Positions 2,295-27,521 of a DNA stretch of 49,732 nt are shown here, one piece after another. This stretch comes from a candidate division WWE3 bacterium CG22_combo_CG10-13_8_21_14_all_39_12 (GTDB lineage: Bacteria; Patescibacteriota; 4484-211; GCA-002791395). The notes beneath the pieces were generated by a model. The model did not search any database. It was not told the origin of the DNA and saw only the letters and a list, made by a program, of their open reading frames with translations. Each line of letters opens with the position of its first letter. The first letter of the stretch is position 1. A program made the translations under genes and the position numbers. The DNA is taken from positions 1 to 49,732 of the forward strand of contig PCSU01000056.1 in assembly GCA_002771355.1 (NCBI GenBank). The letters are read 5' to 3'.

Positions 2295-2314
2295 GTTTTA
2301 GTGAGTACACATTA

Positions 2315-4426: not shown

Positions 4427-4496
4427 CTAAAATGTGTACATTTTTTAAACTAGTAAGTTTTTTCGAATGATTTCATCATTCTTATTTTTACTCTTA

Positions 4497-6299: not shown

Positions 6300-6404
6300 A
6301 ATCTTAAGATGTAACCCTATCTATGGACTCAGAATATATAAGGGATTTCTGCCTTACCATATTCTGAATCCACAACTATAATTACCACTGGTAACTATAT
6401 ACCA

Positions 6405-6575
6405 CTAACTGCATTTTGTGTGTCCACATGACAAACACAAAAAACATCCTTCTTGAAAAGCAACAGGACCAGCCCCACATTCTGGACAGAAAAAGTTACT
6501 CGTCTGATCTTCTGCAGAATTAGTATTCTCATTGGCACCTGTTAATTGTATTGTTTGCGTCTCAGTTTGAATAAT
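6405..6575 (-). CDS. Stand-alone Cys-rich zinc-ribbon mini-protein resembling the class II RNR C-terminal redox tail (56 codons, putative ATT start)
   Basis: Hand translation of the minus strand gives IIQTETQTIQLTGANENTNSAEDQTSNFFCPECGAGPVAFQEGCFLCLSCGHTKCS, ending at TAG (6407-6405). The Cys spacing C-x2-C-x10-C-x2-C-x2-C-x4-C matches the tail of paralog 1. A strong SD, AAGGAGGTG (6588-6580), sits just upstream of ATT at 6575 (GGAGG core 6 nt upstream). The open frame contains no ATG, GTG or TTG. Confidence 0.5.
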   Translation of the reverse strand: MIQTETQTIQLTGANENTNSAEDQTSNFFCPECGAGPVAFQEGCFLCLSCGHTKCS

Positions 6576-6595
6576 AAAACACCTCCTTATGTTGT

Positions 6596-8341
6596 TTACT
6601 TTGCTCCTACCGTTAAAACTTGAGTATCTCTACTGTTATTTCTATATACGGTAACTCCTTTGCACTTTAAGTCGTACGCTTGAATATATACATTCTCAAC
6701 ATCTTCTATGGTTGATTGTTCTGGCATATTTACCGTTTTAGTAATAGCATTATCAGTAAATTCCTGAAACGCTGCTTGCATCTTTACATGCCATTCAGGT
6801 GATATATCATGTGCCGTAACAAAAGATCGCTTTAAATCATCAGGTATTGCATCAATATCCCTAACGGACCCTACAACACCAATTCGTTCCATAATTTCAT
6901 TAGAATTGACACCTCGTTTTTGAGATACTTTTTTAAAAACCGGATTAAGTTCAACAAGTTTTGTATCTCCCATTGTCTCCATGTTTTGCCTGGTATAAGC
7001 CAACGCAAAAAATGGTTCTATTCCGCCAGAAACCCCCGCAACAAGACTCGTTGTACCGGTTGGAGCAATTGTAGTTATTGTACAGTTTCGCATTCGATCA
7101 AAACCCCACTTTTCAAACACACTTTTATCAAAGTTCGGAAAACTTCCTTTCTCTTCAGCTAATTTCATTGATTCATCACGTCCAATATCAGTCATTCGCT
7201 TCATAAGTTTACGAGCCAACTCTAGCGCATCCTCGGAATCATAAGGAATTCCCTGATACGCCAACACATCAGCAAAGCCCATGACGCCAAGCCCAATTCG
7301 ACGATTACCATGATTAACATCATACATTTCTTGAATGGGGTATTCATTTAAATCAATACTATTGTCTAAAAATCTAACAGCAAGACGAACTACCCGTTCA
7401 TACTCATTCCAATCAAAAACATACCCTTCCTGCGTTTCATTCAAAAATCGTGGCAGAACAATAGAACCTAGTGTACATGCTTCATATGGAAGCAATGGTT
7501 GCTCACCACACTGATTGACTGACTCGATCTTTCCAACTCCAGGTACCGTATTGTGTCGATTAATTTCATCAATAAAAATCACGCCTGGTTCTGCACTACT
7601 GTGAGCACTCTCTGCAATTTGTCGTAATAATTTTCTGGCACTTACCGTTTCCCACACTTTTCCATCCCTCGGGTTGATGAGGTTAAAATCAGAATCCGTT
7701 TTTACAGCGTCCATAAATGCGTCAGTTATTGCAACAGAAATATTAAAATTAGTTAGCTGAGAGTAATCTTTTTTAGCATCAATAAATTTAAAAATATCTG
7801 GATGATCAACACGCAACACGCCCATATGTCCTGCATGACGAATCGAACCAATATTTAAAATCACTTCACTACTAAAGTCAAACAAACGCATAAATGAAAT
7901 TGGTCCTGTTGCTGGCTTTCCTGTTGATAAAATCATGTCCCCTTCAGGGCGAATTTTAGAAAAATCATAACCTACAGCAGCGCCAGCACGATGAACCAAA
8001 GCTGCATTATGGAGTGTTCCATAAATAGATGTTAAATGATCTTCAATGGGCAAAACAAAACATGCCGAAAGTATGCGATTTGACCGACCTGCGTTTCGCA
8101 TTGGAGTTCCTGACACAAATTTAAGACTCGATAAAATATCGTAAAAATCTTCTTCAACCGACTCAGCAGACCGACTGGTGGGATATTTATTCTCAACGGA
8201 GGCCAATGTTTTTGCAATACGCTCAAACATCTCTTCTGGAGTTTCAAGAACATTACCACTCTCATCCCTTCGAAGATACCGTTTTTCAAGTACCGTTAAT
8301 CCATTTTCGGGAATGTCTAGTGATGTTAGTACTTTACTCAT
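6596..8341 (-). CDS. nrdJ: Class II ribonucleotide reductase, paralog 4: core only
   Basis: 581-aa ORF. LSACFVLPIED, SVNQCGEQPLLPYEACTLGS and VTVYRNNS motifs. Ends ...TVGAK with no Cys tail. Confidence 0.88.
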   Translation of the reverse strand: MSKVLTSLDIPENGLTVLEKRYLRRDESGNVLETPEEMFERIAKTLASVENKYPTSRSAESVEEDFYDILSSLKFVSGTPMRNAGRSNRILSACFVLPIEDHLTSIYGTLHNAALVHRAGAAVGYDFSKIRPEGDMILSTGKPATGPISFMRLFDFSSEVILNIGSIRHAGHMGVLRVDHPDIFKFIDAKKDYSQLTNFNISVAITDAFMDAVKTDSDFNLINPRDGKVWETVSARKLLRQIAESAHSSAEPGVIFIDEINRHNTVPGVGKIESVNQCGEQPLLPYEACTLGSIVLPRFLNETQEGYVFDWNEYERVVRLAVRFLDNSIDLNEYPIQEMYDVNHGNRRIGLGVMGFADVLAYQGIPYDSEDALELARKLMKRMTDIGRDESMKLAEEKGSFPNFDKSVFEKWGFDRMRNCTITTIAPTGTTSLVAGVSGGIEPFFALAYTRQNMETMGDTKLVELNPVFKKVSQKRGVNSNEIMERIGVVGSVRDIDAIPDDLKRSFVTAHDISPEWHVKMQAAFQEFTDNAITKTVNMPEQSTIEDVENVYIQAYDLKCKGVTVYRNNSRDTQVLTVGAK

Positions 8342-8383: not shown

Positions 8384-8556
8384 CGGTACTTTTTTGCCGT
8401 TAGTTCATCCTTAATGGAGTGTACATAAAATCAAACCGTAGTACGGGCATGGATTGAAGGTAAGCAGTTTACTCATCGCATAGCTTGCAAACTGCCCTTT
8501 ACAATAATCTCAACTTACGGTATAGAGTTCATAAGAACAAACTTATAAAAAAAATT

Positions 8557-9099
8557 ATGAAGATTTACACACGAACTGGAGATAACGGAAAGACCTCTCT
8601 TTTTACTGGTGAGAGAACATCAAAAGATGCCTTACGAATAATATGTATTGGAACAATTGATGAACTAAATGCAGCAATCGGAGTCGTTGTTTCTCAACTA
8701 AAAAACACTCCTTCCTCTGAAGACACTGCCATCCGCTTGAGAACTATCCAACGCAAACTCTTTACTACCGGTAGTTCACTTGCAAACTCTAATCTTTCCA
8801 TAACACAAGAAGATATTAACAATATGGAAGCTAGTATTGATTACTTAACTGATCACCTACCAACACTTAACAATTTTATTTTGCCTGGAGGTAGTCAGGC
8901 TGCAAGTAGTTGCCATCTTGCACGAACTATCTGTAGAAGATGCGAACGGCTATTAGTAACTCTAAACAACACTGAGTCGATTGACCCACTTGTTTTGCAA
9001 TTTTTTAATCGCCTTTCTGACTATTTATTCACGATAGCACGGGCAATAAATATTAACGAAGGTACAGGAGAAATAATTTGGAATAGACATAATCTGTAA
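8557..9099 (+). CDS. pduO: PduO-type ATP:cob(I)alamin adenosyltransferase
   Basis: The N-terminus MKIYTRTGDNGKTSLFTGERTSKD is the hallmark PduO/MMAB-type start. About 180 aa with a helical-bundle-type sequence. I chose ATG 8557 rather than the ORF-track start at 8485. Confidence 0.85.
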   Translation: MKIYTRTGDNGKTSLFTGERTSKDALRIICIGTIDELNAAIGVVVSQLKNTPSSEDTAIRLRTIQRKLFTTGSSLANSNLSITQEDINNMEASIDYLTDHLPTLNNFILPGGSQAASSCHLARTICRRCERLLVTLNNTESIDPLVLQFFNRLSDYLFTIARAININEGTGEIIWNRHNL

Positions 9100-13769: not shown

Positions 13770-14909
13770 CTACACCTGCCCACGAGCACTTCGCGAAATG
13801 TTTATCAAAATCCCAACCGAAACAAGAAGTAATGTTAATGAAGTGCCCCCGTAACTTATAAAAGGAAGTGGTACACCAGTCAGTGGCATTAATCCAACCA
13901 TTCCCCCTAAATTCACCAACGTTTGAAACGCAATTGTAGTGGTAATACCAACAGCCAAAAATTTACCAAACGGATCTGAAGCTCTTTGTGCAATTGTAAT
14001 TCCTCGCCAAATCACAAATGCAAGTGCACCAATTACTAAAATCGCACCTATAAAACCTAATTCTTCACCGATAATTGCAAATATAGAATCAGTCGTAACC
14101 TCTGGGATATACTCATATTTTTGGCGAGAACTCCCTAGTCCAAGCCCCAATATGCCACCTGACCCCAGTGCAATAAATATTTGTGTAATTTGATATGAAA
14201 CTCCCTGAGGATCCGCCAACGGGTCCAGAAATGTGAAGATTCTTTGCCTTCTATAATCACTCGATAATGCATAAATAACTGCAGAAACAGCTCCTGATAT
14301 CCCAGCAAGACTTATCCAAAACAATGATGCTCCCGCAACAAAATAGACCATAAGCGCTGTTACAGAAATCAAAATTGCGTTTCCGAGATCAGGTTCTAAT
14401 GCCGTTAAAAGTAGAATTGTACCAACAACAACTAAAAATGGCTTGTGGGGCAATCCTCTTCGTATATCTTTATCAAACAAAGCAGCCAAATATATAACGA
14501 TGCTTAACTTAGCGATCTCAGATGGTTGAACTGATATGCTTTGCAAAAATGGCACCGGTATATATAGGCGCTGCTTTGCACCATACACCTCTTGTGAAAA
14601 ACCAGGGAGTAGTACGACAAGAAGTAAAATAATGGTTAAAACAATAAGTGGAAATGCAATCTTTTTTAAAACATGATAATCAATATTACTTACAATAAAG
14701 GCTCCAACTATACCAATAAATGCCCATATGCTCTGGTTTTTTAAAAACCAAAACTTGTCCCCAAATTCTTCAAATGCAACAACGACACTTGTGTTGTAAA
14801 CCATAAACACACCAAACAGCGTGAGTGCTAACACAACTCCAGCAAGCACATAATCTGTTACCGCAAAGGTTCTTATTTTAAAACTGTTCTTTTTTGATCG
14901 TACGGGCAT
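13770..14909 (-). CDS. ftsW: FtsW/RodA (SEDS) peptidoglycan polymerase
   Basis: About 10 TM helices. SEDS motifs QPSEIAKL, PDLGN, TDSIFAIIGEELGFIG and PLPFISYGGTS. Confidence 0.9.
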   Translation of the reverse strand: MPVRSKKNSFKIRTFAVTDYVLAGVVLALTLFGVFMVYNTSVVVAFEEFGDKFWFLKNQSIWAFIGIVGAFIVSNIDYHVLKKIAFPLIVLTIILLLVVLLPGFSQEVYGAKQRLYIPVPFLQSISVQPSEIAKLSIVIYLAALFDKDIRRGLPHKPFLVVVGTILLLTALEPDLGNAILISVTALMVYFVAGASLFWISLAGISGAVSAVIYALSSDYRRQRIFTFLDPLADPQGVSYQITQIFIALGSGGILGLGLGSSRQKYEYIPEVTTDSIFAIIGEELGFIGAILVIGALAFVIWRGITIAQRASDPFGKFLAVGITTTIAFQTLVNLGGMVGLMPLTGVPLPFISYGGTSLTLLLVSVGILINISRSARGQV

Positions 14910-16224
14910 GATTAATTACATCCTCAGGGAACATTTCTAAAGATTGAATTTCAAAAAGTTGCTCATTACTAGATACACTCCTTCCATCACCAATTGTAAG
15001 TAATAAAAATTCATCTTTGGTCAACCCGCCAACAGTATATTGAGATGAGATAAATTCAATTCTTTGATCTCCTCCAACATAAACCCCATTAGGGGGGGTG
15101 TGATTAATAATCACCTGTGATGCTTCAGTATTTCTTGAAATAACTCTCATTCCCTTCAGCTGTTTTGTGAAAAAGTATGGATCATCGATCATGGTATCGT
15201 TAATAGTAATACCAAAGCTTTTATAATGTTCGTTTAAAAGACTTGATCCACATACCTCCTGTTCAAGTTGAGTTATCATCTGGGCAGAAGCTGTAAACCG
15301 TGGATTCATCTCCTGGGCATAAACTCTTGCATGCTCATCTACCAAAAAATCCAATCCAAAAAAACCACGATATCCAAGATCACGCGCAATTGTTGCTAAC
15401 TTAACTGTTATTCTCCCAATGTCAAAAACAACGTCCTTTGTCTTAGTACTAAAATATGGTACAAGGTCCGTCCATACGTTTCCAACAGTACTACCCTCCA
15501 TACGAGCTAAGGGAACCTCCTCATTCATGTCATCATTTATTTGAATAAAAGGATACGTTTGATAAACTTCACTCTCTGAAACTACAGCATTAATAGTAAG
15601 TGTTGTTCCTGGTATAAACTGCGATACTTTTACCTTACGATTACTATACTGATCTCGCAAACTGAATAGATCCGACTCACTTTCAAGAAAAAATGTACGG
15701 TTCCCAAACCAACCTCTTTCAAACTGAACAACCATTCGTTCTCCAAATTCTTGAGACAATGAGTCAAAATGAAGATTATTTAAGTGCTCAACACGAGACG
15801 GCGGGTGAGGTATCTGGTGCTCCTTACACATGCGAACAAAGTTTAATTTATTTTCTAATAGCGAACTTACGGCTGGCGATGCATTCAAAGAACGTATTGT
15901 ACGAGATTTACCTAATGGCGTTTCAGCTATCACTTTCTCTAATGAAAATAATGGTTTAAAAAATATAATCCCCACCTCATCAACACTTCTTTTTAAGATA
16001 AACTCTTGAACTGCATCATGAAGTAACAATTTACGACTATTACGAACGATTATGTCTCCCCCCAATTCTTTTTCAATACAAAATACCGATACACCTTTTT
16101 CTATAAGCATATCAACAATATCGGTATAGTCGACGCAAATCACATGAAAATTCTCATATAAATCTTCAATGCCAAGGGCCCGTAAAGGATCTGTTGCTAC
16201 GTAAAATATTGGTAATCTTTCCAT
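14878..16224 (-). CDS. ATP-grasp family ligase of unknown substrate, occupying the usual murD position
   Basis: 448 aa. C-terminal ATP-grasp core FFGLDFLVDEHARVYAQEMNPRFTAS. Its stop overlaps the ftsW start by 32 nt and its start is 4 nt after the PLP gene. Confidence 0.7.
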   Translation of the reverse strand: MERLPIFYVATDPLRALGIEDLYENFHVICVDYTDIVDMLIEKGVSVFCIEKELGGDIIVRNSRKLLLHDAVQEFILKRSVDEVGIIFFKPLFSLEKVIAETPLGKSRTIRSLNASPAVSSLLENKLNFVRMCKEHQIPHPPSRVEHLNNLHFDSLSQEFGERMVVQFERGWFGNRTFFLESESDLFSLRDQYSNRKVKVSQFIPGTTLTINAVVSESEVYQTYPFIQINDDMNEEVPLARMEGSTVGNVWTDLVPYFSTKTKDVVFDIGRITVKLATIARDLGYRGFFGLDFLVDEHARVYAQEMNPRFTASAQMITQLEQEVCGSSLLNEHYKSFGITINDTMIDDPYFFTKQLKGMRVISRNTEASQVIINHTPPNGVYVGGDQRIEFISSQYTVGGLTKDEFLLLTIGDGRSVSSNEQLFEIQSLEMFPEDVINHARTIKKEQF

Positions 16225-16228
16225 TTGT

Positions 16229-17119
16229 TTAGGTTAGCACAACTACAACATGACTGTTTATCTTAAAATTTACAGTTTGAGCTTTTATAAATCCCGCATA
16301 AGCAAGCGCTCCCTCCTTTGAAAAATCAGTAACCCCATATTCTGTAAGTGTATTAATTGCAGATAAAACCTCATCATCTGTAACAATCCACCCGGATCCA
16401 TTGGTAGCTTTAACTGCATCAATTACTAACTCTTTTCGATCGGTCTGCCTTGCAACAATACCGGTAACAATACTTCGTGCCTTTTTTCTAAACGTTGTAT
16501 CAAATTTTGAAGCAATAGTATTAATATGTTGCGATTGCACAACATGAATCTGCGGCATACTTTCACGTGGCGTATCAGCCATAACAATACCCTCCCAAAA
16601 GCCCTGTACGGTTGTGCCAGAACTAACAGGAAAAAATATACTTACACCATCAACATTCTCACCCTGGGTTTTAATTTGTTGTTGTATTTCATCCCACAGT
16701 GCTTGGTAACCTTTGGTAGCATTACTATCTTTTGATTGTCTCACATACGGAATTGAGTGTTTATGGGAAAAATCTATAGCTCCTTGAATTGCCATTTCTT
16801 GTTTATGAATTATCGCTCCATAGCTAGACAATCTTTCAAACCGAACCGGTTCAATAAAAGGTGGTACAAAAGCATGCAGTGTAATTCCTGCCACCTGACA
16901 ATAGTACGCTGCAGCAACTGAAGCATTCCCCGAAGAAGATACTACAATTTCTCTATGATTCCCCTCAACCATATGGGCAATTTGCCATACCATCCCTCGC
17001 GACTTAACCGAACCAGTAACGTTATGATCTTCTCTTTTTAGCCATACATTTCCAACGTTTTGAAGTGGCGTTTCTGGCCAAGGTAAAGCGTAGTCATTTG
17101 CAAACTGCGAAGCATTCAT
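16229..17119 (-). CDS. Fold-type II PLP-dependent enzyme (Trp-synthase-beta/threonine-synthase/cysteine-synthase superfamily)
   Basis: PLP-lysine motif KREDHNVTGSVKSRG, plus SSSGNASVAAA and a phosphate-loop-like PVSSGTTV. 296 aa. Confidence 0.8.
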   Translation of the reverse strand: MNASQFANDYALPWPETPLQNVGNVWLKREDHNVTGSVKSRGMVWQIAHMVEGNHREIVVSSSGNASVAAAYYCQVAGITLHAFVPPFIEPVRFERLSSYGAIIHKQEMAIQGAIDFSHKHSIPYVRQSKDSNATKGYQALWDEIQQQIKTQGENVDGVSIFFPVSSGTTVQGFWEGIVMADTPRESMPQIHVVQSQHINTIASKFDTTFRKKARSIVTGIVARQTDRKELVIDAVKATNGSGWIVTDDEVLSAINTLTEYGVTDFSKEGALAYAGFIKAQTVNFKINSHVVVVLT

Positions 17120-17172
17120 ATACGTAGTATACTATTTTTTATAAGACAATTGTGTTAAAGGTGGTGAATAAA

Positions 17173-17343
17173 ATGGAAGAAATTCAAACAAAACAAGTAC
17201 CATGTCTAGACTGCGACTCTACTCTTGAGGTCGTTGACGATATTGAGATTGGAGATATTCTAGTATGCGAGGGTTGCGGTGTTGAACTAGAAGTAGTTAA
17301 CAATAACCCCACAGAACTTGATTATCTCTATGTTCAAAAATAA
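17173..17343 (+). CDS. LysW-like zinc-ribbon small protein (amino-group carrier protein fold) lacking the canonical acidic EDWGE tail
   Basis: 56 aa: MEEIQTKQVPCLDCDSTLEVVDDIEIGDILVCEGCGVELEVVNNNPTELDYLYVQK. The CxxC...GE/D-I-hydrophobic-C-E-x-CG-x-ELEVV pattern matches LysW. SD AAGGTGGTG lies 6 nt before ATG 17173. Antisense to the dcw operon. Confidence 0.6.
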   Translation: MEEIQTKQVPCLDCDSTLEVVDDIEIGDILVCEGCGVELEVVNNNPTELDYLYVQK

Positions 17344-17352
17344 AAACGATTC

Positions 17353-18378
17353 TTAGATCGTTGCAATAAAAAGTCCAATAAAAGCACATAAAGCACCAGC
17401 GATCCAAAACCGCATGGTTACTTTTGTCTCATCCCACCCCATCGCTTCAAAGTGATGGTGTAGTGGTGCAATTTTAAATAATCTCTTTTCCCCAAGATAT
17501 CTAATTGAAAACAACTGAATAAGGCTTGATAATAACTCAATAACAAATACCCCTCCAATAATTGGTAACACAAGAGACTTTCCAATAAGTAAAGCTATTA
17601 CTCCCAATAATGCTCCAAATGCTATTGAGCCTGAATCCCCCATAAATAACCGTGCTGGATACACATTAAAATACAAGAACGCAAGGAGCGCACCCATAAG
17701 AACAGCTATAAATAAAATCACATCTCCTGAAAATGTATGTGGTACTGCTAACACCCAAAACGCAGATAATGCAATTAACATAAGTCCTGTTGCAAGACCA
17801 TCCATCCCATCAGTAATATTAAATGCATTGCTCGACGATACAATTACAAATGCAGCAAAGGGAATATATAACCACCCAAGACTTATATCATTAACTCTAA
17901 AAACACTGGAAAGAATCGGGATTTCAACTGTATGTAGTCCGGTGAATTTATATAAGAGGTATCCAATAATTAATCCTAATATTGTCTGAATAATAAGCTT
18001 CTCAAGGGCAGGAAGTGCACGAATCCTGCGTTTACGAACCCGAATCATTTTTCGAAAGTCGTCATACATCCCCAAAACTCCAAATGAGATAAGTGTTACA
18101 AACAAAATAATTGATGTCCAGTTTATAGAAAATGAAGTAACTACATAAAAAATTATAGAGAACAGTAATACTGACCCAAGGATAAGTACTCCTCCCCCTG
18201 TTGGCGTTCCGACTTTCCACCCATGCAAGTCATTAAATACCGTCTTGTTCCCGTGCATATCAACACTTTTTACAGGTTTTTGTCGAATATGTAACTTGTA
18301 AAGTGCATGTATAAATGGAATTGCAAGCGCAGCAGTGAAGATAAAAGATAGAAGTAATATCGCAAATATTTTGTACAT
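17353..18378 (-). CDS. mraY: Phospho-N-acetylmuramoyl-pentapeptide transferase MraY
   Basis: Polytopic membrane protein with NAFNITDGMDGLA, FMGDSGS and PLHHHFE motifs. Confidence 0.95.
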   Translation of the reverse strand: MYKIFAILLLSFIFTAALAIPFIHALYKLHIRQKPVKSVDMHGNKTVFNDLHGWKVGTPTGGGVLILGSVLLFSIIFYVVTSFSINWTSIILFVTLISFGVLGMYDDFRKMIRVRKRRIRALPALEKLIIQTILGLIIGYLLYKFTGLHTVEIPILSSVFRVNDISLGWLYIPFAAFVIVSSSNAFNITDGMDGLATGLMLIALSAFWVLAVPHTFSGDVILFIAVLMGALLAFLYFNVYPARLFMGDSGSIAFGALLGVIALLIGKSLVLPIIGGVFVIELLSSLIQLFSIRYLGEKRLFKIAPLHHHFEAMGWDETKVTMRFWIAGALCAFIGLFIATI

Positions 18379-18384
18379 TTTTTA

Positions 18385-20472
18385 TTATGTTGTATTTAGT
18401 ATCTTTAATCTTCGTACACCATCTCCACGCTCAGGATGAAAATGCACACTATACGCTTCTCCCTGTGGAGTTTTTTCTTGCCATTGTTGTTCCTGCAACG
18501 ACTTTTTAGCATCAACGACTTTGATTATAGCAGTGTGTGGCCCTTGTCGTACGGTTCTTTTATATGAAGAATGTGCATACTCAATCTCAGTAATAACACC
18601 ATTTTTTCTTGTGATACCAGTAATAATCAAGACATGGTCACCCGGTCTTGCTACACCCATGCGAATCATATCAGATTCTTGAATATCGTTGATATCAGAA
18701 ATGGGAACGGTGTGCTTATCATTTGTTAACATATCTGCACTCACATTTCTGTACCAACGATCCGGCATCAGGGATTTTCGTATCCTGCCAAAAAGGCTTG
18801 TTGGAGTAATAAGTTTAGTAAGACTTGGTATCTCTCTAGTTAACAGATATGCATTCAATACATGGAACACCATGCCAGAACACTCAATGCCAATCTGTTG
18901 CTGTTTCATAAATCTAAACACTTCGGCATCTGAATGGGTTTCAAGATCAAACTCGTTTTCCTGTGCCATTTCAAGTAATTCATGGCGAATCACCTCTGGA
19001 GAACCCTTGCCGGCGCTCCTTTTTATATTAAATCGCTTTTGATTAATAACGTATGGGATTTTTATGTTCTTTTCATTTACCGTAAAATTGATATATTCAC
19101 CTAAGCGTTCCCTCATCGCTCGAGTAGCCTTAGCATGCTTAAGCCTATCAATAAGTCTCTCATCAAGACCATCCATTCCACCTGACGACATCAAAACATA
19201 TACACACGGCAAAGGTTCTGAAATAAGCTTAAAAATTAACACGTCTTGTTGTGGGGCATACATGGTATGCTCATGCGTTTTTGAAATAGCTGCAACAATA
19301 TCTTTACCTGTAACTTTATAATCAGCATCTTTTTTGGCAGACACTTTGGGAATATATAGTTTATCTGCTGCACTAAAGCGATTGTCAAATTCTGTTAATA
19401 CGGCCGGATTTTTAAGCGATGAGGAAAACATGTCAAATACACCAACAACCGTACTGTCTGGCCATTTTTGTTTTATTGATAAAAGCACTGTCTGCGCTTT
19501 TACTGGAGAATGTGCCAAGTCCCTAACAATAACAGTGCCGGCATCGTCATAAATAACTTCCATCCTTTGTTTCAATCCAGCATAAGATTCAAGATGAGCC
19601 TTTACTTGAACAGAATCAAATCCAATCTCTGTTAACAACGTATATGCAGCTGTAAGATTATCTTTATTAAATTCCCCAAGCATGGTCGGTGTCCAGTTAA
19701 GATCAATTGTTTTAATATCTGATGAACCATCATGTGAATACGTTACAACCTTACATGGCGCATGAGATATGGCATCTTTAATGTTTTTACCATCAACATT
19801 TGCAATAAGAACACCATCAGAAGGAAGCTTACTTACTAACTCAATGTAGTTTTTTATATAAAGATCTTCTGTTGGAAACTGATCGTAATGATCCCATTCG
19901 GCTGAGGTTAGAACAAGATACTTTGGCTTATAGTAAAAAAACTTAGATTGCGGCGGTTCACTTGTCATTGGAGGTACTGGATACTCATCTCCTTCAACAA
20001 CTGACCATTTCCCTTGAGAAGAAACCAAACTCTCCTCATAGCCTACCATTTGCCCTCCCACCATATATGATGGATCTTGATGAAGCTGAGATAGCACATG
20101 AACAATTGCACCCGATATCGTACCTTTCCCAAAATTGCCTGCTACAACAATCGACTCATCTTTAACCACATATTCACCAAGAACTTCTGGGTATGAAACA
20201 GTTTTAATATGTAATACTTTAGCCTTTTCAAATTCTGGATTATGAGGGTCAACAATCAATGCATTCCCACCAACTACAACAAGATCCGTCCCAGGTTTCA
20301 GATTATCGGCATTATATGGAGACGAAATCTTGACGCCAATTTTCTCAAGATACGTACTATTTGGCGGATACACGTTTATGTCAGATCCTGAGACATTCCA
20401 ACCCTTTTTTAAAAACATATGAGCCAGGGCAGATGTTGCTTTGCCAGCTATTCCAATAATGTGTACATTCAT
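18385..20472 (-). CDS. Mpl-type Mur ligase (UDP-MurNAc:murein-tripeptide ligase-like) fused to a ~250-aa C-terminal Cys/His peptidase-like (NlpC/P60- or transglutaminase-like) domain
   Basis: The N-terminus HIIGIAGKATSALAHMFLKKGWNVSGSDINVYPPNSTYLEKIGVKI closely parallels E. coli Mpl (GSDANVYPPMSTLLEKQGIE). Also VEGDEY, AEWDH, RDLAHSP and LMSSGGMDGL. Variant P-loop AGNFGKGT. Extra C-terminal region (aa ~446-695) has GIECSGMVFHV ... PGDHVLIITG ... EYAHSS. Confidence 0.75.
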   Translation of the reverse strand: MNVHIIGIAGKATSALAHMFLKKGWNVSGSDINVYPPNSTYLEKIGVKISSPYNADNLKPGTDLVVVGGNALIVDPHNPEFEKAKVLHIKTVSYPEVLGEYVVKDESIVVAGNFGKGTISGAIVHVLSQLHQDPSYMVGGQMVGYEESLVSSQGKWSVVEGDEYPVPPMTSEPPQSKFFYYKPKYLVLTSAEWDHYDQFPTEDLYIKNYIELVSKLPSDGVLIANVDGKNIKDAISHAPCKVVTYSHDGSSDIKTIDLNWTPTMLGEFNKDNLTAAYTLLTEIGFDSVQVKAHLESYAGLKQRMEVIYDDAGTVIVRDLAHSPVKAQTVLLSIKQKWPDSTVVGVFDMFSSSLKNPAVLTEFDNRFSAADKLYIPKVSAKKDADYKVTGKDIVAAISKTHEHTMYAPQQDVLIFKLISEPLPCVYVLMSSGGMDGLDERLIDRLKHAKATRAMRERLGEYINFTVNEKNIKIPYVINQKRFNIKRSAGKGSPEVIRHELLEMAQENEFDLETHSDAEVFRFMKQQQIGIECSGMVFHVLNAYLLTREIPSLTKLITPTSLFGRIRKSLMPDRWYRNVSADMLTNDKHTVPISDINDIQESDMIRMGVARPGDHVLIITGITRKNGVITEIEYAHSSYKRTVRQGPHTAIIKVVDAKKSLQEQQWQEKTPQGEAYSVHFHPERGDGVRRLKILNTT

Positions 20473-20474
20473 GT

Positions 20475-21257
20475 TTAATGTGAATCACGTTTTATATTTA
20501 AAACGTCAACAATGCCTTTGTAACCATTAATATCTAACCACTCTTTATCTTTAAGAAGTTCTTGCAAAGACTCTTTATTAAGTAGATATTTGAGTGCATC
20601 AATATTTGTATTCCATTTTGATCCATCGAAAAATTCAAACCCAGAAAAATTCGTTTTGTAGAGTGAGGCTTGAGAATACGCTGTTCCCAAATATGCATAG
20701 GACAAGCCATCATTTTTTGCCCAATTAATTGCCTCTAACATCATGCGTGAACCCAATCCACTAGCTGATACTGCGGTGTTAATAAACGCCATCCAATAGA
20801 ACATACTGCCCCCAGATACCATAACAGGTATCATTCCTGCTATACGATCATCATCTTGTCGCTTCCACGTAAAAATCACATCACTCATATGATGAGAAAA
20901 CATTCGTTTTATTGCATGATCGGAAACCTTTGCATCCCCCATTACATCAATAACAAATTGGCGCATCCATAATAAATCTGTGTTATTAATTCTCACTGAA
21001 TCACTTGATTGAATGGTGAAATGATATGGCGATGTTTTTTTTATAACGCGACGATTTTCTGAAGAAGGTTCAAATTGATTAAGATCAATTCGCGTTGAAC
21101 GAGCAAGATACCATAAACCAATTTTCATTCTCGAAGGCAAAAAACCCATGTTAAGTAATGAAGCTTTATCTTCATTATTATCTTCTAAGGCCCACACTTG
21201 ATACGGAAACGCATAGTCATTATAGGAAGCAAGATGTTCTGAGAATAGTAACTTCAT
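20475..21257 (-). CDS. ATE/Bpt-family (arginyl/leucyl-tRNA--protein transferase-like) aminoacyl-tRNA transferase homolog
   Basis: 260 aa. GFLPSR...RIDLNQFEPSSENRRVIKK parallels Bpt GFRRSG...RV..F.PS.SQRR. The C-terminal LSYAYLGTAYSQASLYKTNFSGFEFFDGSKW parallels the ATE_C motif YLGY...YK..F.P.E....W. The N-terminal Cys cluster of Bpt is absent. Confidence 0.6.
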   Translation of the reverse strand: MKLLFSEHLASYNDYAFPYQVWALEDNNEDKASLLNMGFLPSRMKIGLWYLARSTRIDLNQFEPSSENRRVIKKTSPYHFTIQSSDSVRINNTDLLWMRQFVIDVMGDAKVSDHAIKRMFSHHMSDVIFTWKRQDDDRIAGMIPVMVSGGSMFYWMAFINTAVSASGLGSRMMLEAINWAKNDGLSYAYLGTAYSQASLYKTNFSGFEFFDGSKWNTNIDALKYLLNKESLQELLKDKEWLDINGYKGIVDVLNIKRDSH

Positions 21258-21335: not shown

Positions 21336-22802
21336 ATGGATAACAATTTTAGTATTGATAATCTCAAACAAGCAGTTCTTATGTATCACCCATCTGCAGA
21401 AATTGAGATAATAGATAACGCCTACAATTTTGCCGAGATGGCATATGCGGACATAAACAGAATTGACGATACCCCACTTATTGATCATGCCCTTGCAACG
21501 GCACTTATCCTTGCTGATATTCGAGTTGACGAACACACTATTGCAGCAGGTCTCCTTCATGACATCATCCATGAAACAGATCTTTCCCTCCAGGATATAG
21601 AAGGTGATTTTGAACCAGAAACCTTAAAACTCATTACTGACATTAGTAAACTTAAAACATATACGACAAAACAAAGTGAACTAGCCTATGCCCAACAATT
21701 AAGAAATCTATTTCTTGCTACAACTGAAGACATTCGTGTTGTTTTAGTACGACTTGCTGAAAAAATCCACAACTTACATAGCATTACAGCTCTTCCGCAA
21801 GAAAAAAGACTTGTTGTTGCTCAAAAAGCTATTGACATTTATGCACCACTTGCCGACCTATTGGGTGTTCAAAAATTTAAACGTGAACTTGAAGACCGAG
21901 CATTTGAGGTTTTAAACAAAGTAGAATTTGAAACCATAAAAAATTATTATGACTCCAGGTATGGTTCACAAGACAGTACGGTTAATGCGATCCACGATGA
22001 CTTACAGCAAACACTCGCATCACGAAACATGGATTTCAAACTGTATGGACGCATGAAGGCAAAATACAGTACCTATAAAAAATTCCTTGCAGAAAGCGAG
22101 GGGAAACAGACTCTTGAAGATTTTCTCGATACTATTTATGACAAAATTGGATTCACTATTCTTGTTAACTCAACGGAAGACTGCTACAGGAGTTTAAGCA
22201 CCTTGCGTCGTGAATTCCCTTCTGCACGGGATCTAGTCAAGGACTATATTATAAATCCCAAACCTAATGGATATAAAGCTATTCACACCTACATAACTAC
22301 AAAAAACGACATGCCTTGTGAGGTTCAAATAAAAACTCACATCATGCACGAATTTAATGAATTTGGGCCTGCTGCACATGCATTCTACAAACTTGTGGGT
22401 AGAAAACGTGGTTCCTTGCTTGAAACACCTGAAGAGAAAATAACTCAAATGAAAGAACTCTTACATTGGAAGGAAGGCATTCTTAGCGATAACGATGCGA
22501 CAACAAAACTAACAACTTTCAAAAAACATATTTATGTCTTTACCCCTAAAGCCGATGTTATTGAACTACCTCACGGTGCAACCCCAATAGATTTTGCATA
22601 CCATATTCACACTAAAATTGGCGATCGCATACGTGGAGCTCATGTTAATAATAAATTTGTCGGTATAGATCATGTTTTAGAGAATGGTGATGTATGCGAA
22701 ATCCTAACCCGTAACGGAAGACAAAAACCAAGCCGTGATTGGCTCAGAATAGCAAAAACTGCTGCAGCTCGAAGCCAGATTAGAAAATCACTTCAAGAAT
22801 AA
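21336..22802 (+). CDS. RelA/SpoT homolog (HD-like domain + (p)ppGpp synthetase domain + TGS), no ACT/RRM domain
   Basis: AAGLLHDIIHETD (HD), GRMKAKYSTYKKF, DYIINPKPNGYKAIHT, EVQIKTHIMHEFNEFGPAAHAFYK, and TGS IYVFTPKADVIELPHGATPIDFAYHIHTKIG. Opposite strand to the dcw genes. Confidence 0.88.
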   Translation: MDNNFSIDNLKQAVLMYHPSAEIEIIDNAYNFAEMAYADINRIDDTPLIDHALATALILADIRVDEHTIAAGLLHDIIHETDLSLQDIEGDFEPETLKLITDISKLKTYTTKQSELAYAQQLRNLFLATTEDIRVVLVRLAEKIHNLHSITALPQEKRLVVAQKAIDIYAPLADLLGVQKFKRELEDRAFEVLNKVEFETIKNYYDSRYGSQDSTVNAIHDDLQQTLASRNMDFKLYGRMKAKYSTYKKFLAESEGKQTLEDFLDTIYDKIGFTILVNSTEDCYRSLSTLRREFPSARDLVKDYIINPKPNGYKAIHTYITTKNDMPCEVQIKTHIMHEFNEFGPAAHAFYKLVGRKRGSLLETPEEKITQMKELLHWKEGILSDNDATTKLTTFKKHIYVFTPKADVIELPHGATPIDFAYHIHTKIGDRIRGAHVNNKFVGIDHVLENGDVCEILTRNGRQKPSRDWLRIAKTAAARSQIRKSLQE

Positions 22803-22833: not shown

Positions 22834-23955
22834 TTACGTAGTATATTGATTGATTAGTTCACGAACAACAGCTTGGTCACTCCATGGGATTTCTGTTTTA
22901 CCATCTAGATTCATGGATTTCTCATGTCCCTTTCCAGTAATTAAAACAATGCTTCCCTCCGTTGCTTGTGATAGTGCAAATGCAATTGCTTCTTTTCGAT
23001 TGGGCTTAATAAAATAAGTTTCATCACGTACACCACCTGCATTGCCTGCCCCTAAAGCAATTTGTTGACAAATTACGTTCACATCTTCTGTGCGTGGATC
23101 TTCAGCAGTTATCACTGTTAAATCAGCATTTTTTACTGCAATTTCACCCATTGTTGGACGTTTGTGATAATCACGCTCACCAGCACACCCAAAAACAACA
23201 ATTACCTTACTTTCGGTTGAGACCATGGTACGAACAGAAGTTAACGCAGTATATAAACCTTTTGAGGTATGTGCAAAATCTACGATTACTTTAAACTTGT
23301 CATTATATACAACCTCCATTCGCCCAGAGATTGCAGTTACTGACTCGATACCTTTTTTAACAAACTCTTGTGGTACTTGTAAGGCAAGTGCAATCGCTGC
23401 TGCTAGTTTTGCATTTTGCGTATTATAGCTCCCCAAGAGATTAACATCGATTCCCTGAAGCACTCCATCCGAAATATTCTCAGCACTAAGCGAAATATCA
23501 CCAGTAGCTAAAAATGAAAGTTTTGTCTTTTGATAAGCTTCAAAACTTTTATGGTAATCCAAATGCTCGTGTGTAATATTTGTTAGTCCAGTTACATTAA
23601 AATGCACACCCGCAAACCTGTTTTGATCAATTGCATGGGAAGTTACCTCCAAAACAACATGGGTCATCCCTTCATTTACCATGCTACGTAATATTTTTTG
23701 AACATCCCATGCCCCGGGACTTGTTACATGAAACCCTGTATCCATCTGCTTATCTCCAAACTGTGCAGAAATGGTTGATAATAAGCCAACGTTAATTCCT
23801 GCTTTACTTAAAATTGCATGCGTATAAATAGATGTCGTTGTTTTACCATCAGTGCCTGTAATACCAATCACAGTCAGCTTACGAGAAGGGTGACCAAAAT
23901 ATATAGTGGCAATCCACGCACGAAGTAAATGAAATATGTTTTTGATTTTTTGCAT
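22834..23955 (-). CDS. murE: MurE-like Mur ligase lacking the N-terminal (UDP-MurNAc-binding) domain
   Basis: 373 aa. The P-loop VIGITGTDGKTTT starts at about aa 28. Also EVTSHAIDQNR, ITHEHLDYH, VDFAHTSKG, GCAGERDYHKRPTMG, TAEDPRTED and TGKGHE, all MurE signatures. About 100 aa shorter at the N-terminus than typical MurE. Confidence 0.8.
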   Translation of the reverse strand: MQKIKNIFHLLRAWIATIYFGHPSRKLTVIGITGTDGKTTTSIYTHAILSKAGINVGLLSTISAQFGDKQMDTGFHVTSPGAWDVQKILRSMVNEGMTHVVLEVTSHAIDQNRFAGVHFNVTGLTNITHEHLDYHKSFEAYQKTKLSFLATGDISLSAENISDGVLQGIDVNLLGSYNTQNAKLAAAIALALQVPQEFVKKGIESVTAISGRMEVVYNDKFKVIVDFAHTSKGLYTALTSVRTMVSTESKVIVVFGCAGERDYHKRPTMGEIAVKNADLTVITAEDPRTEDVNVICQQIALGAGNAGGVRDETYFIKPNRKEAIAFALSQATEGSIVLITGKGHEKSMNLDGKTEIPWSDQAVVRELINQYTT

Positions 23956-23957
23956 AT

Positions 23958-24977
23958 TTATAATCCTTTCTTTAATCGTTCAAGTTTTACATATATCCAC
24001 ATGGGCCAATATTTCCATACTTTAATTGGATAATCGAGTGTATTCATCCACCGAACTCTTTTACCACCGAAACCTTTTTTAAAGAATGTTAACCCTGCCC
24101 TCGGATGGTTTGGATTGTCAGTTGGTGCAACCCCCCAAAAATCATACGTTTTTGCTCCTCGTTCCTTTGCACGTTTAATAAGTGCCCACTGCAAGGCATA
24201 CTGTGCATGTTCATCTCCATATTCATTGGTAGACCCACTATGATGATAAAAAGCCATCTGGTCATAAAACACTAAAAGAGATGCAGCGTGTACTCTTCCT
24301 TTGTGCTCGGCAATCAAAATCTCAATAAGTCCATCTTTGTTGAATGCTTCAAACTCATCAATAAAAAATTGTTTATCATACGAAACAAAACCCTGACGTT
24401 TTACTGTTTCATTATATACGTCAAAAAGTTTACATAGGTCAGAAACATCCGTTGATATGCGTACTGTCACCCCTTGTTTTTGAGCCTTTCGTACATAATA
24501 GCGCGTATTCTTACGCATTGATGAAAGTAATTCATCTTCAGATTGCGTAAGATCAAGAGTCATGGTGTACTCGGCATTAAAGTACATGGGAGCCTTCCTA
24601 TAACCCATACTAATATATTCCTTAATTTTTTGATCATCGTGAATAAGTGGTGCACGAAAACGCATAAAATCAAGATTTTCTTTTTGAGCATACTCAAGAA
24701 TATGCGTATGAAAAGCATTAAACTGTGCCTTATCCTCCCAATCAATAGTTGGTCCTGCATGCGAAACTATATAGTTTGCCCGTCTAGATTTCACCACAAC
24801 ACATAAATTGGCACCAACGAGCTGGTCATCATCATATAGTCCGAGACGAAGGACCGTATGTCCCTGGCTTTCCTCAAAATCTCCCCAATTCCACGCCTGA
24901 AGCATAGATTGTGGGTTATGTGAACACACTAATGCCCGCCACTCATTTTTATTTGTTACATCATGTACTGTTAACAT
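23958..24977 (-). CDS. FemAB/FemX/MurM-family peptidoglycan peptide-bridge aminoacyl-tRNA transferase
   Basis: 339 aa. MRKNTRYYVRKAQKQGVTV and YHHSGSTNEY...AQYALQWALIKRAKERGAKTYDFWGV are typical of the FemABX family. Confidence 0.8.
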   Translation of the reverse strand: MLTVHDVTNKNEWRALVCSHNPQSMLQAWNWGDFEESQGHTVLRLGLYDDDQLVGANLCVVVKSRRANYIVSHAGPTIDWEDKAQFNAFHTHILEYAQKENLDFMRFRAPLIHDDQKIKEYISMGYRKAPMYFNAEYTMTLDLTQSEDELLSSMRKNTRYYVRKAQKQGVTVRISTDVSDLCKLFDVYNETVKRQGFVSYDKQFFIDEFEAFNKDGLIEILIAEHKGRVHAASLLVFYDQMAFYHHSGSTNEYGDEHAQYALQWALIKRAKERGAKTYDFWGVAPTDNPNHPRAGLTFFKKGFGGKRVRWMNTLDYPIKVWKYWPMWIYVKLERLKKGL

Positions 24978-24979
24978 AA

Positions 24980-26227
24980 TTAAGCTCCCTTTTCTTCTTT
25001 GTACTCCTTATACAAAGAAATTACTAACGAAACGTCTTCATCGGTCATTCGGGAATACGTTGGCAAGTTTACCACCTGTGATGCAACATCTTCTGCTACA
25101 GGAGCATCACCTACGGTATACCCTAATTTAGACAGATCCACTTCACATGGGGCTACTACTTGATCATACCAATCACCCAAAATAACGCCGCGCCGTGAAA
25201 AATACTTCTTCATTTCTGTTGGACTGTTTTCTAAAATGGCATAACGTAACCAAACTCGTTCTGCTGTATCAATTTGAACACTTTGTATTCCTGCATCATA
25301 ATACTTCGATGCAATTTCAGTACGACGATTCGTGGACACCTTAAGGGAAGAAAGCTGGGACATTGCAAGTTTAGCCAAAACTCCAGGCATTTTTTTTGTA
25401 GTCCATAGTGGACGAGGTCCTGACATCTTCTCATCAAAAGACGTGGCTTTTGATATTAAACCTATATTTTGCAACACATAATGCCATGCTTTTCCGAATG
25501 ATAACCAATGGTATGTTACTAGTGATATCCACGTTGTGATCGGATGTAATAGCTGTTTTTTGATCCACCACCAACCCATCTTTTTTCGAGTTTCCACCTG
25601 CTGTCTATATTTGTTTTGTTTTCCAAAATCTTTTAAGACAACAATACCTCCAAACACTGAACTGACGATTTTGTCACGCCCAAAACTAAACACACTCGCG
25701 TCCGCTATTGTCCCCACTGGTTTGCCATCACGGGTAGCGCCAAGGGCATGGGCACAATCTTCGATAACAATAATCCCCTTTTCGTGCGCAAACGATAAAA
25801 GTTCATCAAGATCCTGAAACGGCAATCCAAACGTATGCTGAACAATAATTGCTTTCGTCTTTTTTGAAACATGCTTTTTTACTTCCTCTAAACTCACATT
25901 CAAGGAATCCTTTTCAATATCAACAATAACTGGAGTCGCGCCAACCCAATGAACAGGATTGGTGACTGCAACACAGGTAAACCCCTGAACAATAACCTCG
26001 TCACCTTTGCCAATACTATATGTAGAAAGAATATCCGCTATACCTGCCCGTGCACTATTAATTGCAAACACTGATTCTTTTGAGATAGAAAGAATATCTG
26101 AAAACACACTTTCTAATTCATGTACTGGTTCCGTGTCACGCCATTTCCATGGCTGTAATAGCAATGCTATAGCAAGATGTACATCCTCTTTTGAAATATT
26201 TGGGGATAAGCTTGGGGTGATAAGCAT
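24980..26227 (-). CDS. DegT/DnrJ/EryC1/StrS-family PLP-dependent sugar aminotransferase
   Basis: GDEVIVQGFTCVAV, VIEDCAHALGA, and the PLP-Lys motif FSFGRDKIV. 415 aa. Confidence 0.85.
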   Translation of the reverse strand: MLITPSLSPNISKEDVHLAIALLLQPWKWRDTEPVHELESVFSDILSISKESVFAINSARAGIADILSTYSIGKGDEVIVQGFTCVAVTNPVHWVGATPVIVDIEKDSLNVSLEEVKKHVSKKTKAIIVQHTFGLPFQDLDELLSFAHEKGIIVIEDCAHALGATRDGKPVGTIADASVFSFGRDKIVSSVFGGIVVLKDFGKQNKYRQQVETRKKMGWWWIKKQLLHPITTWISLVTYHWLSFGKAWHYVLQNIGLISKATSFDEKMSGPRPLWTTKKMPGVLAKLAMSQLSSLKVSTNRRTEIASKYYDAGIQSVQIDTAERVWLRYAILENSPTEMKKYFSRRGVILGDWYDQVVAPCEVDLSKLGYTVGDAPVAEDVASQVVNLPTYSRMTDEDVSLVISLYKEYKEEKGA

Positions 26228-26228
26228 A

Positions 26229-27515: not shown

Positions 27516-27521
27516 ATGTAT

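Follow-up and report, generated by a model that had tools for sequence, protein, structure and literature searches.

The DNA analysed here, referred to as the window, is a 49,732-nt stretch of contig PCSU01000056.1 (assembly GCA_002771355.1) from a candidate division WWE3 bacterium whose genome is low in G+C (38%). Open reading frames and matches to domain and family profiles place a division and cell wall (dcw) gene cluster on the minus strand of the window. In the slot of murD, between mraY and ftsW, this cluster carries genes for a small zinc-ribbon protein (the carrier), a pyridoxal phosphate (PLP) enzyme and an ATP-grasp ligase:

17353-18378, minus strand: mraY, the upstream flank of the murD slot
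17173-17343, plus strand: carrier, 56 aa, a CxxC...CxxC zinc ribbon (PF21344) with the tail ...YLYVQK
16229-17119, minus strand: fold-type-II PLP enzyme, 296 aa, with the motif TGSVKSRG (PF00291, E 1.9e-40)
14878-16224, minus strand: ATP-grasp carboxylate-amine ligase, 448 aa, with the motifs FFGLDFLVD and EMNPRF (PF02655)
13770-14909, minus strand: ftsW, the downstream flank of the murD slot

The ATP-grasp gene begins 4 nt past the stop of the PLP gene and overlaps ftsW at its 3' end by 32 nt (14878-14909); the carrier and PLP genes are divergent, with start codons (17119 and 17173) 53 nt apart. Re-reading of the sequence found all of these coordinates, lengths, spacings and motifs to be exactly as reported in a first-pass annotation of this DNA, and its domain assignments for the PLP enzyme, the ATP-grasp protein and the zinc ribbon were upheld by Pfam (PF00291, PF02655 and PF21344, respectively). 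The cluster as a whole opens with mraZ, rsmH, a small ftsL-like open reading frame and ftsI, followed by a weak MurA-like gene, an alpha/beta hydrolase, a MurF-like ligase, a DegT aminotransferase, FemAB and a short MurE. Next come relA (on the opposite strand), an ATE/Bpt-like GNAT protein, a 695-aa MurC/Mpl-like protein and mraY, and the cluster ends with the carrier, PLP and ATP-grasp genes and then ftsW, murG, ftsQ, ftsA and ftsZ. The closest relatives of the window are metagenome-assembled genomes (MAGs) labelled candidate division WWE3, Shapirobacteria, Gottesmanbacteria, Microgenomates or 'Patescibacteria group', and the contig itself is also present in many metagenome samples.

Loci for comparison were taken from a scan of one genome per species (22 loci) and from a metagenome scan (12-sequence alignment; 80 loci), about 100 in total, and gene order was counted where at least 2.5 kb of sequence preceded the ATP-grasp gene, which left 59 loci after removal of redundancy. 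The carrier, PLP and ATP-grasp genes were found together in 50 of these 59 loci, so the synteny in relatives on which the first-pass annotation had made its reading depend does hold. The three genes were strictly adjacent in 43 of the 59, and the nine loci that lacked the full set belonged mostly to a distant paralog group. Across genomes and metagenomes the arrangement was seen again in about 70 independent loci, which is far beyond chance. The carrier gene runs antisense to the co-directional cluster in nearly all of about 65 loci, the exceptions being L053 and L083.

A further gene accompanies the trio. An NlpC-like gene was found in 40 of 54 loci, and in most relatives it stands on its own beside the carrier gene; in the window the same domain forms the C-terminal part of the MurC-like protein encoded upstream of mraY:

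18385-19134, minus strand: putative NlpC/P60-like cysteine amidase domain, residues 446-695 of the 695-aa MurC-like protein, triad C531, H613, H634
19135-20472, minus strand: MurC/Mpl-like ligase portion acting on UDP-N-acetylmuramic acid (UDP-MurNAc), PF01225, PF08245, PF02875

Besides this NlpC-like + MurC protein of the window, the database proteins and loci contain fusions of the ATP-grasp protein to the NlpC/P60 domain (several cases), of the ATP-grasp protein to the PLP enzyme (one homologue, P0125/P0161) and of the NlpC-like domain to MurD (P0234, P0237 and P0256). All four genes also lie together in L025/L026, outside any dcw or mur context. The synteny of the four genes, the fusions and the arrangement in L025/L026 therefore indicate that the unit, hereafter the module, has four components: carrier, PLP enzyme, ATP-grasp enzyme and NlpC/P60-like hydrolase. 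The position of L025/L026 might suggest that the module has nothing to do with peptidoglycan and is, for example, a small-molecule or amino-acid salvage system that became lodged in the cluster. We consider this very unlikely, because the module adjoins mraY, ftsW or MurD in about 60 loci and because its hydrolase is fused to MurC or to MurD. The view taken in the first-pass annotation, that these genes work as one conserved unit linked to the synthesis of the stem peptide, is thus supported by synteny in 50/59 loci, by the fusions and by the mur context. The searchable full-text literature yielded no account of the module, nor of LysW homologues with a Lys tail.

We then considered which steps of peptidoglycan precursor synthesis are present around the module. 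Pfam and NCBIfam profiles detected no MurD-type ligase in the 49.7-kb window, where the only Mur ligases are MurC/Mpl-like, MurE and MurF-like, and the 10 kb flanking it on each side contain no murD, murI, murB or ddl. Canonical ddl and murB are also missing from the window itself, and both are kept in the cluster of type-2 relatives. The clusters of relatives hold MurA-like, MurB, MurC, Ddl, Alr, MurE, MurF, MraY and MurG proteins and neither MurD nor MurI; no other canonical cytoplasmic step is lacking from these module clusters.

A straightforward explanation would be that the ATP-grasp enzyme itself ligates the position-2 residue to UDP-MurNAc-L-Ala, replacing MurD, with the PLP enzyme and the carrier supplying that residue. 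Between mraY and ftsW the trio does sit exactly where murD would be, no MurD is found in the window or the 10 kb on either side, and the clusters of type-1 and type-2 relatives carry all other cytoplasmic peptidoglycan genes save MurD and MurI. None of the carrier, PLP and ATP-grasp proteins has the three-domain Mur-ligase fold (PF21799/PF08245/PF02875). However, about 20 loci (Gottesmanbacteria-like, CPR3 and others) have a MurD next to this same trio, in the order NlpC-like, MurD, carrier, PLP, ATP-grasp. The ligase at these loci scores 249.5 against the TIGR01087 cut-off of 212 in L020, and 153 in L016, where murD is the best match; the trio-adjacent MurD-type ligase is 30% identical to bona fide MurD. 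A search with a Gottesmanbacteria MurD for its WWE3 and Shapirobacteria counterparts gave 120 listed matches, all of them close relatives of the query, and revealed the NlpC-MurD fusions.

In L083, a locus of 67% G+C whose carrier is labelled by NCBI as belonging to an Armatimonadetes MAG, the genes run murE, murF, mraY, murD, carrier, PLP, ATP-grasp, which is canonical except for the trio placed behind murD. This locus has the full carrier-PLP-ATP-grasp trio, and another G+C-rich locus, L075 (66%), has a paralog-type ATP-grasp gene only, beside mraY. The range of the ATP-grasp family, and judging by L083 that of the module, may therefore extend beyond Patescibacteria, or the Armatimonadetes bin label may be wrong.

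A true MurD also co-occurs with a paralogous ATP-grasp protein (25-28% identity; PRK06524, 146 bits). Four loci (L092, L093, L096 and L098) show the order ATP-grasp, MurI, MurD, with the racemase scoring 210.7 on TIGR00067 (cut-off 146.65) and the ligase 370.6 on TIGR01087 (cut-off 212). No carrier, PLP or NlpC gene lies beside this paralogous ATP-grasp-MurI-MurD set. Upstream of the paralog in L092 (9944-13440) are genes for an ATPgrasp_ST+Zn_protease, a YheCD ATP-grasp, a MATCAP-like protein and a 7TM-transglutaminase. MurI was found only in these four paralog loci and in no module-bearing locus examined. The carrier, PLP and NlpC genes thus behave as an alternative to MurI, and the neighbour that they retain is MurD or the murD slot.

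Direct replacement of MurD, which would in addition leave the NlpC/P60 hydrolase and the invariant C-terminal Lys of the carrier (described below) unexplained, is consequently judged unlikely. The first-pass annotation had proposed that the trio functionally replaces MurD; this agrees with the window, where MurD is missing, but does not hold in general, given the roughly 20 loci with MurD upstream of the trio and the NlpC-MurD fusion. Its further suggestion, that the trio perhaps replaces the Glu racemase, fits the context, as MurI never occurs with the trio and stands beside the paralog and MurD where the trio is absent. Nothing points to the supply of diaminopimelate (DAP), which it had also named, and that idea was dropped because no linkage to MurE or to any dap genes was seen.

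The same clusters bear on another possibility raised at the outset, that the ATP-grasp enzyme is a Ddl-like ligase making D-Ala-D-Ala (or D-Ala-D-X) with the PLP enzyme as the matching racemase. Ddl is an ATP-grasp enzyme often encoded in dcw clusters, and the window has no canonical ddl. Yet the Shapirobacteria-type locus L008 holds canonical MurB and Ddl (PF07478 + PF01820) in the same cluster as the module, L050 holds canonical Alr and Ddl, and with at least seven more there are at least nine module loci that carry a second, Ddl-type ATP-grasp. The module ATP-grasp protein itself has no match to either Dala_Dala_lig domain, PF07478 or PF01820. With canonical Ddl and Alr beside the module, its ATP-grasp enzyme is therefore not Ddl and its PLP enzyme not an alanine racemase; the Ddl/Alr reading is contradicted and retains hardly any probability.

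The carrier matches the LysW zinc-ribbon family PF21344 (Zn_ribbon_LysW; 44.7 bits, cut-off 27, E 1e-11) and falls under the cut-off of the lysW equivalog TIGR01206 (28.8 bits against 53.2). The LysW structure from Thermus (PDB 3wwl) aligns with it over the ribbon only, residues 11-50. Among 70 complete carrier orthologues, 69 end in Lys and 60 in EEK, and none ends in EDWGE; the window carrier, which ends in VQK, belongs to this 'EEK class'. A profile search of 5.8 billion proteins gave 391 matches, and the tails were read in the best 120: 103 end in K (98 of them in EEK), and 16 are true LysW proteins ending in EDWGE or EDWGQ. Judged by their tails, the EEK-tailed and EDWGE/EDWGQ-tailed proteins are two discrete classes. 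The carrier of L007 has lost its zinc cysteines and retained the Lys tail. Source databases name the EEK class 'lysine biosynthesis protein LysW', but with no EDWGE tail and an invariant terminal Lys the carrier cannot work as LysW does; it appears LysW-like in fold and not in function. No homologue of LysZ, LysY, LysJ or LysK lies near the module, whose neighbours are dcw and mur genes. The earlier label 'LysW-type' is therefore right for the zinc ribbon (PF21344) and wrong for the tail and for the equivalog score. The carrier-protein route proposed with it is still the most economical reading.

The PLP enzyme has the features of its fold: its PLP lysine is K39, its carboxylate loop reads SSSGNA and its phosphate loop PVSSGT, and K39, G64, N65 and S167 are invariant in the family. 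It falls under all NCBIfam cut-offs for threonine synthase, dehydratase and CysK (for example, TIGR00260 40 against 167 and PRK08329 102 against 358). The classification suggested in the first-pass annotation was carried out with a family profile, which upheld fold type II and placed threonine synthase nearest (1e-39, ThrC 2zsj), followed by Ser/Thr dehydratases (1e-27) and, further away, Ser/Asp racemases (1e-24 to 1e-25). Threonine synthase itself was rejected as an identity, since the equivalog cut-offs are missed and the phosphate-binding motif of ThrC, N-S...NPxRxEGQKT, is not conserved among 65 family members; ThrC is still the nearest solved clade. On these profile scores the enzyme represents a ThrC-like family of its own. 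The second, re-face catalytic Ser in the S-G-N loop of fold-type-II racemases is also present in non-racemases, so the Ser kept before G-N within SSSGNA does not discriminate between the two. Retention of the PLP lysine and of the carboxylate-binding SSSGNA loop suggests that the substrate needs a free alpha-amino acid head.

The ATP-grasp enzyme matches PF02655 (33.2 bits, cut-off 23.2) and, weakly, PRK06524. Its residue set K90/E124/K126/Q167/D292/E305/N307/R309 is intact, with K126, D292, E305, N307 and R309 invariant. The family is large, numbering 623 representative clusters (50% identity, E <1e-30). An AlphaFold model (pLDDT 92) matched the biotin-carboxylase (BC)/PurK/PurD architecture in a fold search (TM score about 0.6, 12-14% identity), and Pfam and NCBIfam models of BC, PurK, CarB, Ddl and RimK/LysX gave negligible scores. 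The fold match is to a generic architecture and, with negligible sequence scores to those families, is no evidence for a housekeeping role. A housekeeping clade, which the first-pass annotation had singled out as fatal to its reading, was thus looked for by profile hidden Markov models and fold search and not found. The LysX/ArgX-type partner that it had named for such carriers did not materialise either, as the protein matches PF02655 and no RimK or LysX model. The nearest PDB sequences are peptide ligases (8ynd, 7r8p, PGM1 and BesA), matched weakly and over the C-terminal core. When carrier-specific basic residues were sought by comparison with the paralogs, only R364, N212, D12, T246 and E422 differed, differences that are suggestive, not decisive.

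For the hydrolase, the residues of the triad are conserved in 96% (C531), 98% (H613) and 85% (H634) of sequences, a GxDCSG motif is present, and the triad aligns with PF00877-positive domains. When searched alone, 13 of 24 members of the NlpC-like family match PF00877 (best E 2.4e-6), and the window copy does not. Comparison by hhalign gave 94% over the His motif only (24 columns), and a profile search of the PDB with the domain gave no significant match. Foldseek with a four-sequence AlphaFold model (pLDDT 71) found nothing below E 0.05, with 2hbw ranking third (E 0.19). The NlpC/P60 assignment should accordingly be taken as probable, resting as it does on the triad, the fusions and the Pfam matches of relatives. 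The MurC-like portion of the same protein scores 209 bits on TIGR01082 murC (cut-off 335) and 168 bits on TIGR01081 mpl; it is equidistant from PDB 3hn7 and MurC 9ir5.

Based on these observations we tentatively propose that the module is a four-component carrier-protein route that supplies the D-glutamate at position 2 of the stem peptide, in place of MurI; we regard this as the most likely of the readings considered, a real possibility short of a probability. The carrier would be a LysW-derived zinc ribbon with a flexible acidic tail ending in an invariant Lys, its polarity reversed relative to LysW. Given a PLP enzyme that needs a free alpha-amino acid head and a carrier with an invariant C-terminal Lys, the cargo would be joined through its side-chain carboxylate to the Lys epsilon-amine, no other attachment to that Lys keeping the head free, and with EEK or VQK in place of EDWGE the attachment chemistry would have to be inverted. 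The ATP-grasp enzyme would activate the gamma-carboxylate of L-Glu and couple it to the epsilon-amino group of the terminal Lys, so that the tethered Glu keeps its alpha-amino acid head free. The fold-type-II PLP enzyme would invert the alpha-carbon of the tethered Glu, a chemistry that would fit a fold type whose Ser/Asp racemases are detected by the family profile. Known NlpC/P60 family members cut gamma-D-glutamyl-Lys and gamma-D-glutamyl-DAP bonds, and here the NlpC/P60-type amidase would cut the gamma-D-glutamyl-lysine link and regenerate the carrier. The D-Glu unit would then go to the Mur ligase that adjoins or is fused to the amidase, which is MurD in many lineages and the MurC/Mpl-like ligase in the window. 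The gene set, its conservation, the fusions, the genomic context, the terminal Lys and the intact catalytic residues of all three enzymes are observed, as are the complementarity with MurI and the co-occurrence with Ddl, Alr and MurB; we infer the tethered amino acid, its linkage to the Lys epsilon-amine, the epimerase chemistry and the order of the release and Mur-ligase steps.

Several points weigh against this proposal. The paralogous ATP-grasp protein persists beside MurI and MurD without a carrier, and the role of the ligase family may therefore not depend on how D-Glu is formed. No MurD is visible in the lineage of the window, so the acceptor ligase there is uncertain. The window copy of the NlpC-like domain lies below Pfam significance and its modelled fold has no PDB match. 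A simple racemase would suffice to make D-Glu, and why a carrier should be needed is left unexplained. Finally, the PLP family is nearer to threonine synthases (1e-39) than to racemases (1e-25), and ThrC-type enzymes normally perform beta/gamma elimination or replacement.

This last point leads to a different chemistry, a beta/gamma-replacement on the carrier following the logic of CysO/CysM/Mec or SbnA. Fold-type-II PLP enzymes are known to use the C-termini of carrier proteins (CysM with CysO and the Mec protease) or amines (SbnA) as nucleophiles. Here a ThrC-like PLP enzyme would make an aminoacrylate or vinylglycine from a phospho-amino acid, and the epsilon-amine of the carrier Lys would attack it. 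A modified diamino-dicarboxylic residue would be built in this way and cut off by the NlpC/P60 hydrolase, and the ATP-grasp enzyme would re-add Lys in the manner of TTL or RimK. The affinity of the PLP family to ThrC is in keeping with such a scheme, and a HAD-SerA fusion and a SerC-like gene found 5-7 kb upstream in L016/L018 would be a possible source of O-phosphoserine. Nevertheless, the ThrC phosphate-binding motif is not conserved, neither the adjacency of MurD nor the complementarity with MurI is accounted for, and the ligase to which the module is linked or fused is not MurE, the enzyme that would use the product; we therefore hold this scheme to be unlikely. These genes lie at 342-3338 in L016 and 125-2047 in L018, the HAD-SerA-ACT fusion being 639 aa long, in hosts otherwise without amino-acid biosynthesis.

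The end of the carrier, -Glu-Lys, is also like the -D-Glu-Lys end of the tripeptide, and this brings in side-chain or cross-bridge pathways of the AslA/RacD type, in which the ATP-grasp enzyme AslA adds D-Asp to Lys3 and a racemase is co-operonic (PMC4155827). By analogy, the PLP enzyme would make D-Asp, D-Ser or D-Glu, the ATP-grasp enzyme would add it to the epsilon-amine of Lys3, and the small protein would be a regulator or a substrate mimic. FemAB and ATE-like transferases within the cluster would suit such a pathway. Against it, the persistent partner of the module is MurD and neither MurE nor Fem, and the conserved hydrolase and the fusions to MurD, MurC and the ATP-grasp enzyme go unexplained. 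In addition, the PF01177 racemase beside the paralog is a true MurI (TIGR00067), whereas the partner in the module is a PLP enzyme. A pathway of this type consequently seems improbable.

For the lineages without an adjacent MurD, the carrier route to D-Glu can be taken a step further with two neighbouring genes of the window:

20475-21257, minus strand: ATE/Bpt-like (Fem-fold GNAT) putative aminoacyl-tRNA transferase, PF13480 and PF04377, with weak matches to arginyltransferase models
22834-23955, minus strand: MurE, 373 aa, TIGR01085 351 (cut-off 257), the match starting near profile position 95

In loci without MurD the ATE-like gene always lies between MurE and MurC, upstream of mraY, and the MurE-ATE-MurC block was seen only in such loci. 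In L053, where carrier, ATE-like, MurC, PLP, ATP-grasp and NlpC genes are interleaved, the ATE-like gene (5355-6071) is wedged between the carrier gene and MurC. The transferase may be an accessory to the module. Known acceptors of the ATE/Bpt-like family are N-terminal Asp and Glu. We consider it a doubtful extension that residues 1 and 2 of the stem are assembled off the nucleotide, on the protein carrier. Glu would be tethered to the terminal Lys and epimerised, the ATE/Bpt-like transferase would aminoacylate its free alpha-amine from Ala-tRNA, and the NlpC/P60 domain would free L-Ala-D-Glu. The fused MurC/Mpl-like ligase would then transfer this dipeptide in one piece to UDP-MurNAc, so that neither MurD nor MurI would be needed. 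The MurC-NlpC fusion of the window, the MurE-ATE-MurC block, the interleaving in L053 and the equidistance of the ligase from MurC and Mpl may be hints of such an assembly. The window MurE has no N-terminal UDP-binding domain, in agreement with its offsets to PDB MurE chains, and its orthologues in L004, L010, L011 and L022 are 390-415 aa long.

Other features of the window were recorded as follows:

26229-27515, minus strand: MurF-like ligase, TIGR01143 190.5 (cut-off 288.6; the orthologue in L008 scores 270)
28234-29502, minus strand: MurA-like gene, TIGR01072 104 bits (cut-off 393)
21336-22802, plus strand: RelA/SpoT homologue with HD, RelA_SpoT and TGS domains
within 132-8341, minus strand, and 8485-9099, plus strand: four tandem ribonucleotide-reductase large-subunit-like genes (720, 703, 600 and 581 aa) and a cob(I)alamin adenosyltransferase-like gene

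The RelA/SpoT homologue breaks up the dcw cluster from the opposite strand, and L005 has one too. Two of the four ribonucleotide-reductase-like genes carry ATP-cones, and the adenosyltransferase-like gene adjoins the array; such an array of paralogs is unusual for a reduced genome. The block of alpha/beta-hydrolase, MurF-like, DegT aminotransferase and FemAB genes (23958-28250, minus strand) reappears by the module in L027 (11564-16029), a locus in which the ATP-grasp protein is fused to the NlpC-like domain and adjoined by a PgeF-like (Cu-oxidase_4) gene. An AbiEi/AbiEii toxin-antitoxin-like pair lies inside a long cluster of glycosyltransferase and polysaccharide genes, at 48679-49461 (plus strand) and beyond (L108, 10001-11547).

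If the carrier route is correct, it would be a third natural route to the D-glutamate of the wall, after MurI/D-amino-acid transaminase and MurD2/MurL, and the carrier would be the first LysW-type protein of reversed polarity, with the amine of a terminal Lys taking the place of the carboxylate of a terminal Glu. Carrier-protein-mediated modification of amino acids is known; the new element would be the inverted carrier chemistry, and its use in the synthesis of peptidoglycan precursors in Patescibacteria. Hundreds of small proteins labelled 'lysine biosynthesis protein LysW' in Patescibacteria, which are mostly without lysine biosynthesis, would need re-annotation. More broadly, an ATP-grasp family without an assigned function is part of the best-conserved bacterial gene cluster across a major uncultured radiation, and its module of four small soluble proteins would be a lineage-specific target in wall synthesis.

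Comparison with known systems begins with LysW and ArgW, from which the carrier takes its fold. The logic of loading, modifying and releasing a cargo is that of LysW/LysX/LysK. Both systems have a zinc ribbon (PF21344, 3wwl) with a flexible acidic C-terminal arm, and in both the cargo, likely Glu or a close analogue, would be loaded by an ATP-grasp enzyme and released by a dedicated hydrolase. In contrast to the EDWGE tail of LysW with its terminal Glu, the module carrier has an invariant Lys as its last residue, in EEK or VQK; its ligase is not of the RimK/LysX type, and LysZ, LysY, LysJ and LysK are missing. Release would be performed by an NlpC/P60 cysteine amidase and not by an M20 metallopeptidase, and the context is peptidoglycan instead of Lys and Arg synthesis. 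CysO-CysM-Mec and BtrI-BtrJ-BtrK-BtrG likewise combine a small carrier, an ATP-dependent loader, a PLP enzyme acting at the end of the carrier and a dedicated hydrolase, but their carriers have ThiS-like or acyl-carrier-protein folds, their linkages are thiocarboxylates or thioesters, and their products are different. The hydrolase shares with the NlpC/P60 endopeptidases YkfC and AvPCP (2hbw) the Cys-His-His triad, the GxDCSG motif, a cytoplasmic location and, as proposed here, the gamma-D-glutamyl amide bond; it differs in a long insert and an N-terminal CPYW...GKG region.

Compared with the classical pair of MurI and MurD, the proposed net outcome (D-Glu at position 2) and the genomic position are the same, and MurD is a neighbour of the module in many loci. 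The module, however, consists of four proteins unrelated to these and would consume ATP, whereas MurI is cofactor-independent (PF01177) and absent from all module loci. Elsewhere among the candidate phyla radiation a normal MurI is in use, and racemase activity has been demonstrated for Ca. Saccharimonas aalborgensis (cited in PMC11974145). AslA/Aslfm ligates the side-chain carboxylate of D-Asp to a Lys epsilon-amine, with the racemase RacD/Racfm encoded in the same operon (PMC4155827); its acceptor is Lys3 of the precursor and its racemase is of the PF01177 type, and unlike the module it is neither accompanied by a hydrolase nor linked to MurD. It is a precedent for the proposed loading step, and one for epimerising L-Glu on a tether at the cost of ATP is known from MurD2/MurL of Xanthomonas and Micromonospora, organisms without D-Glu-forming genes (PMC8788868). 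There the tether is UDP-MurNAc-L-Ala and MurL is PLP-independent and AMP-forming, whereas in the module the tether would be a protein Lys and the epimerase a PLP enzyme.

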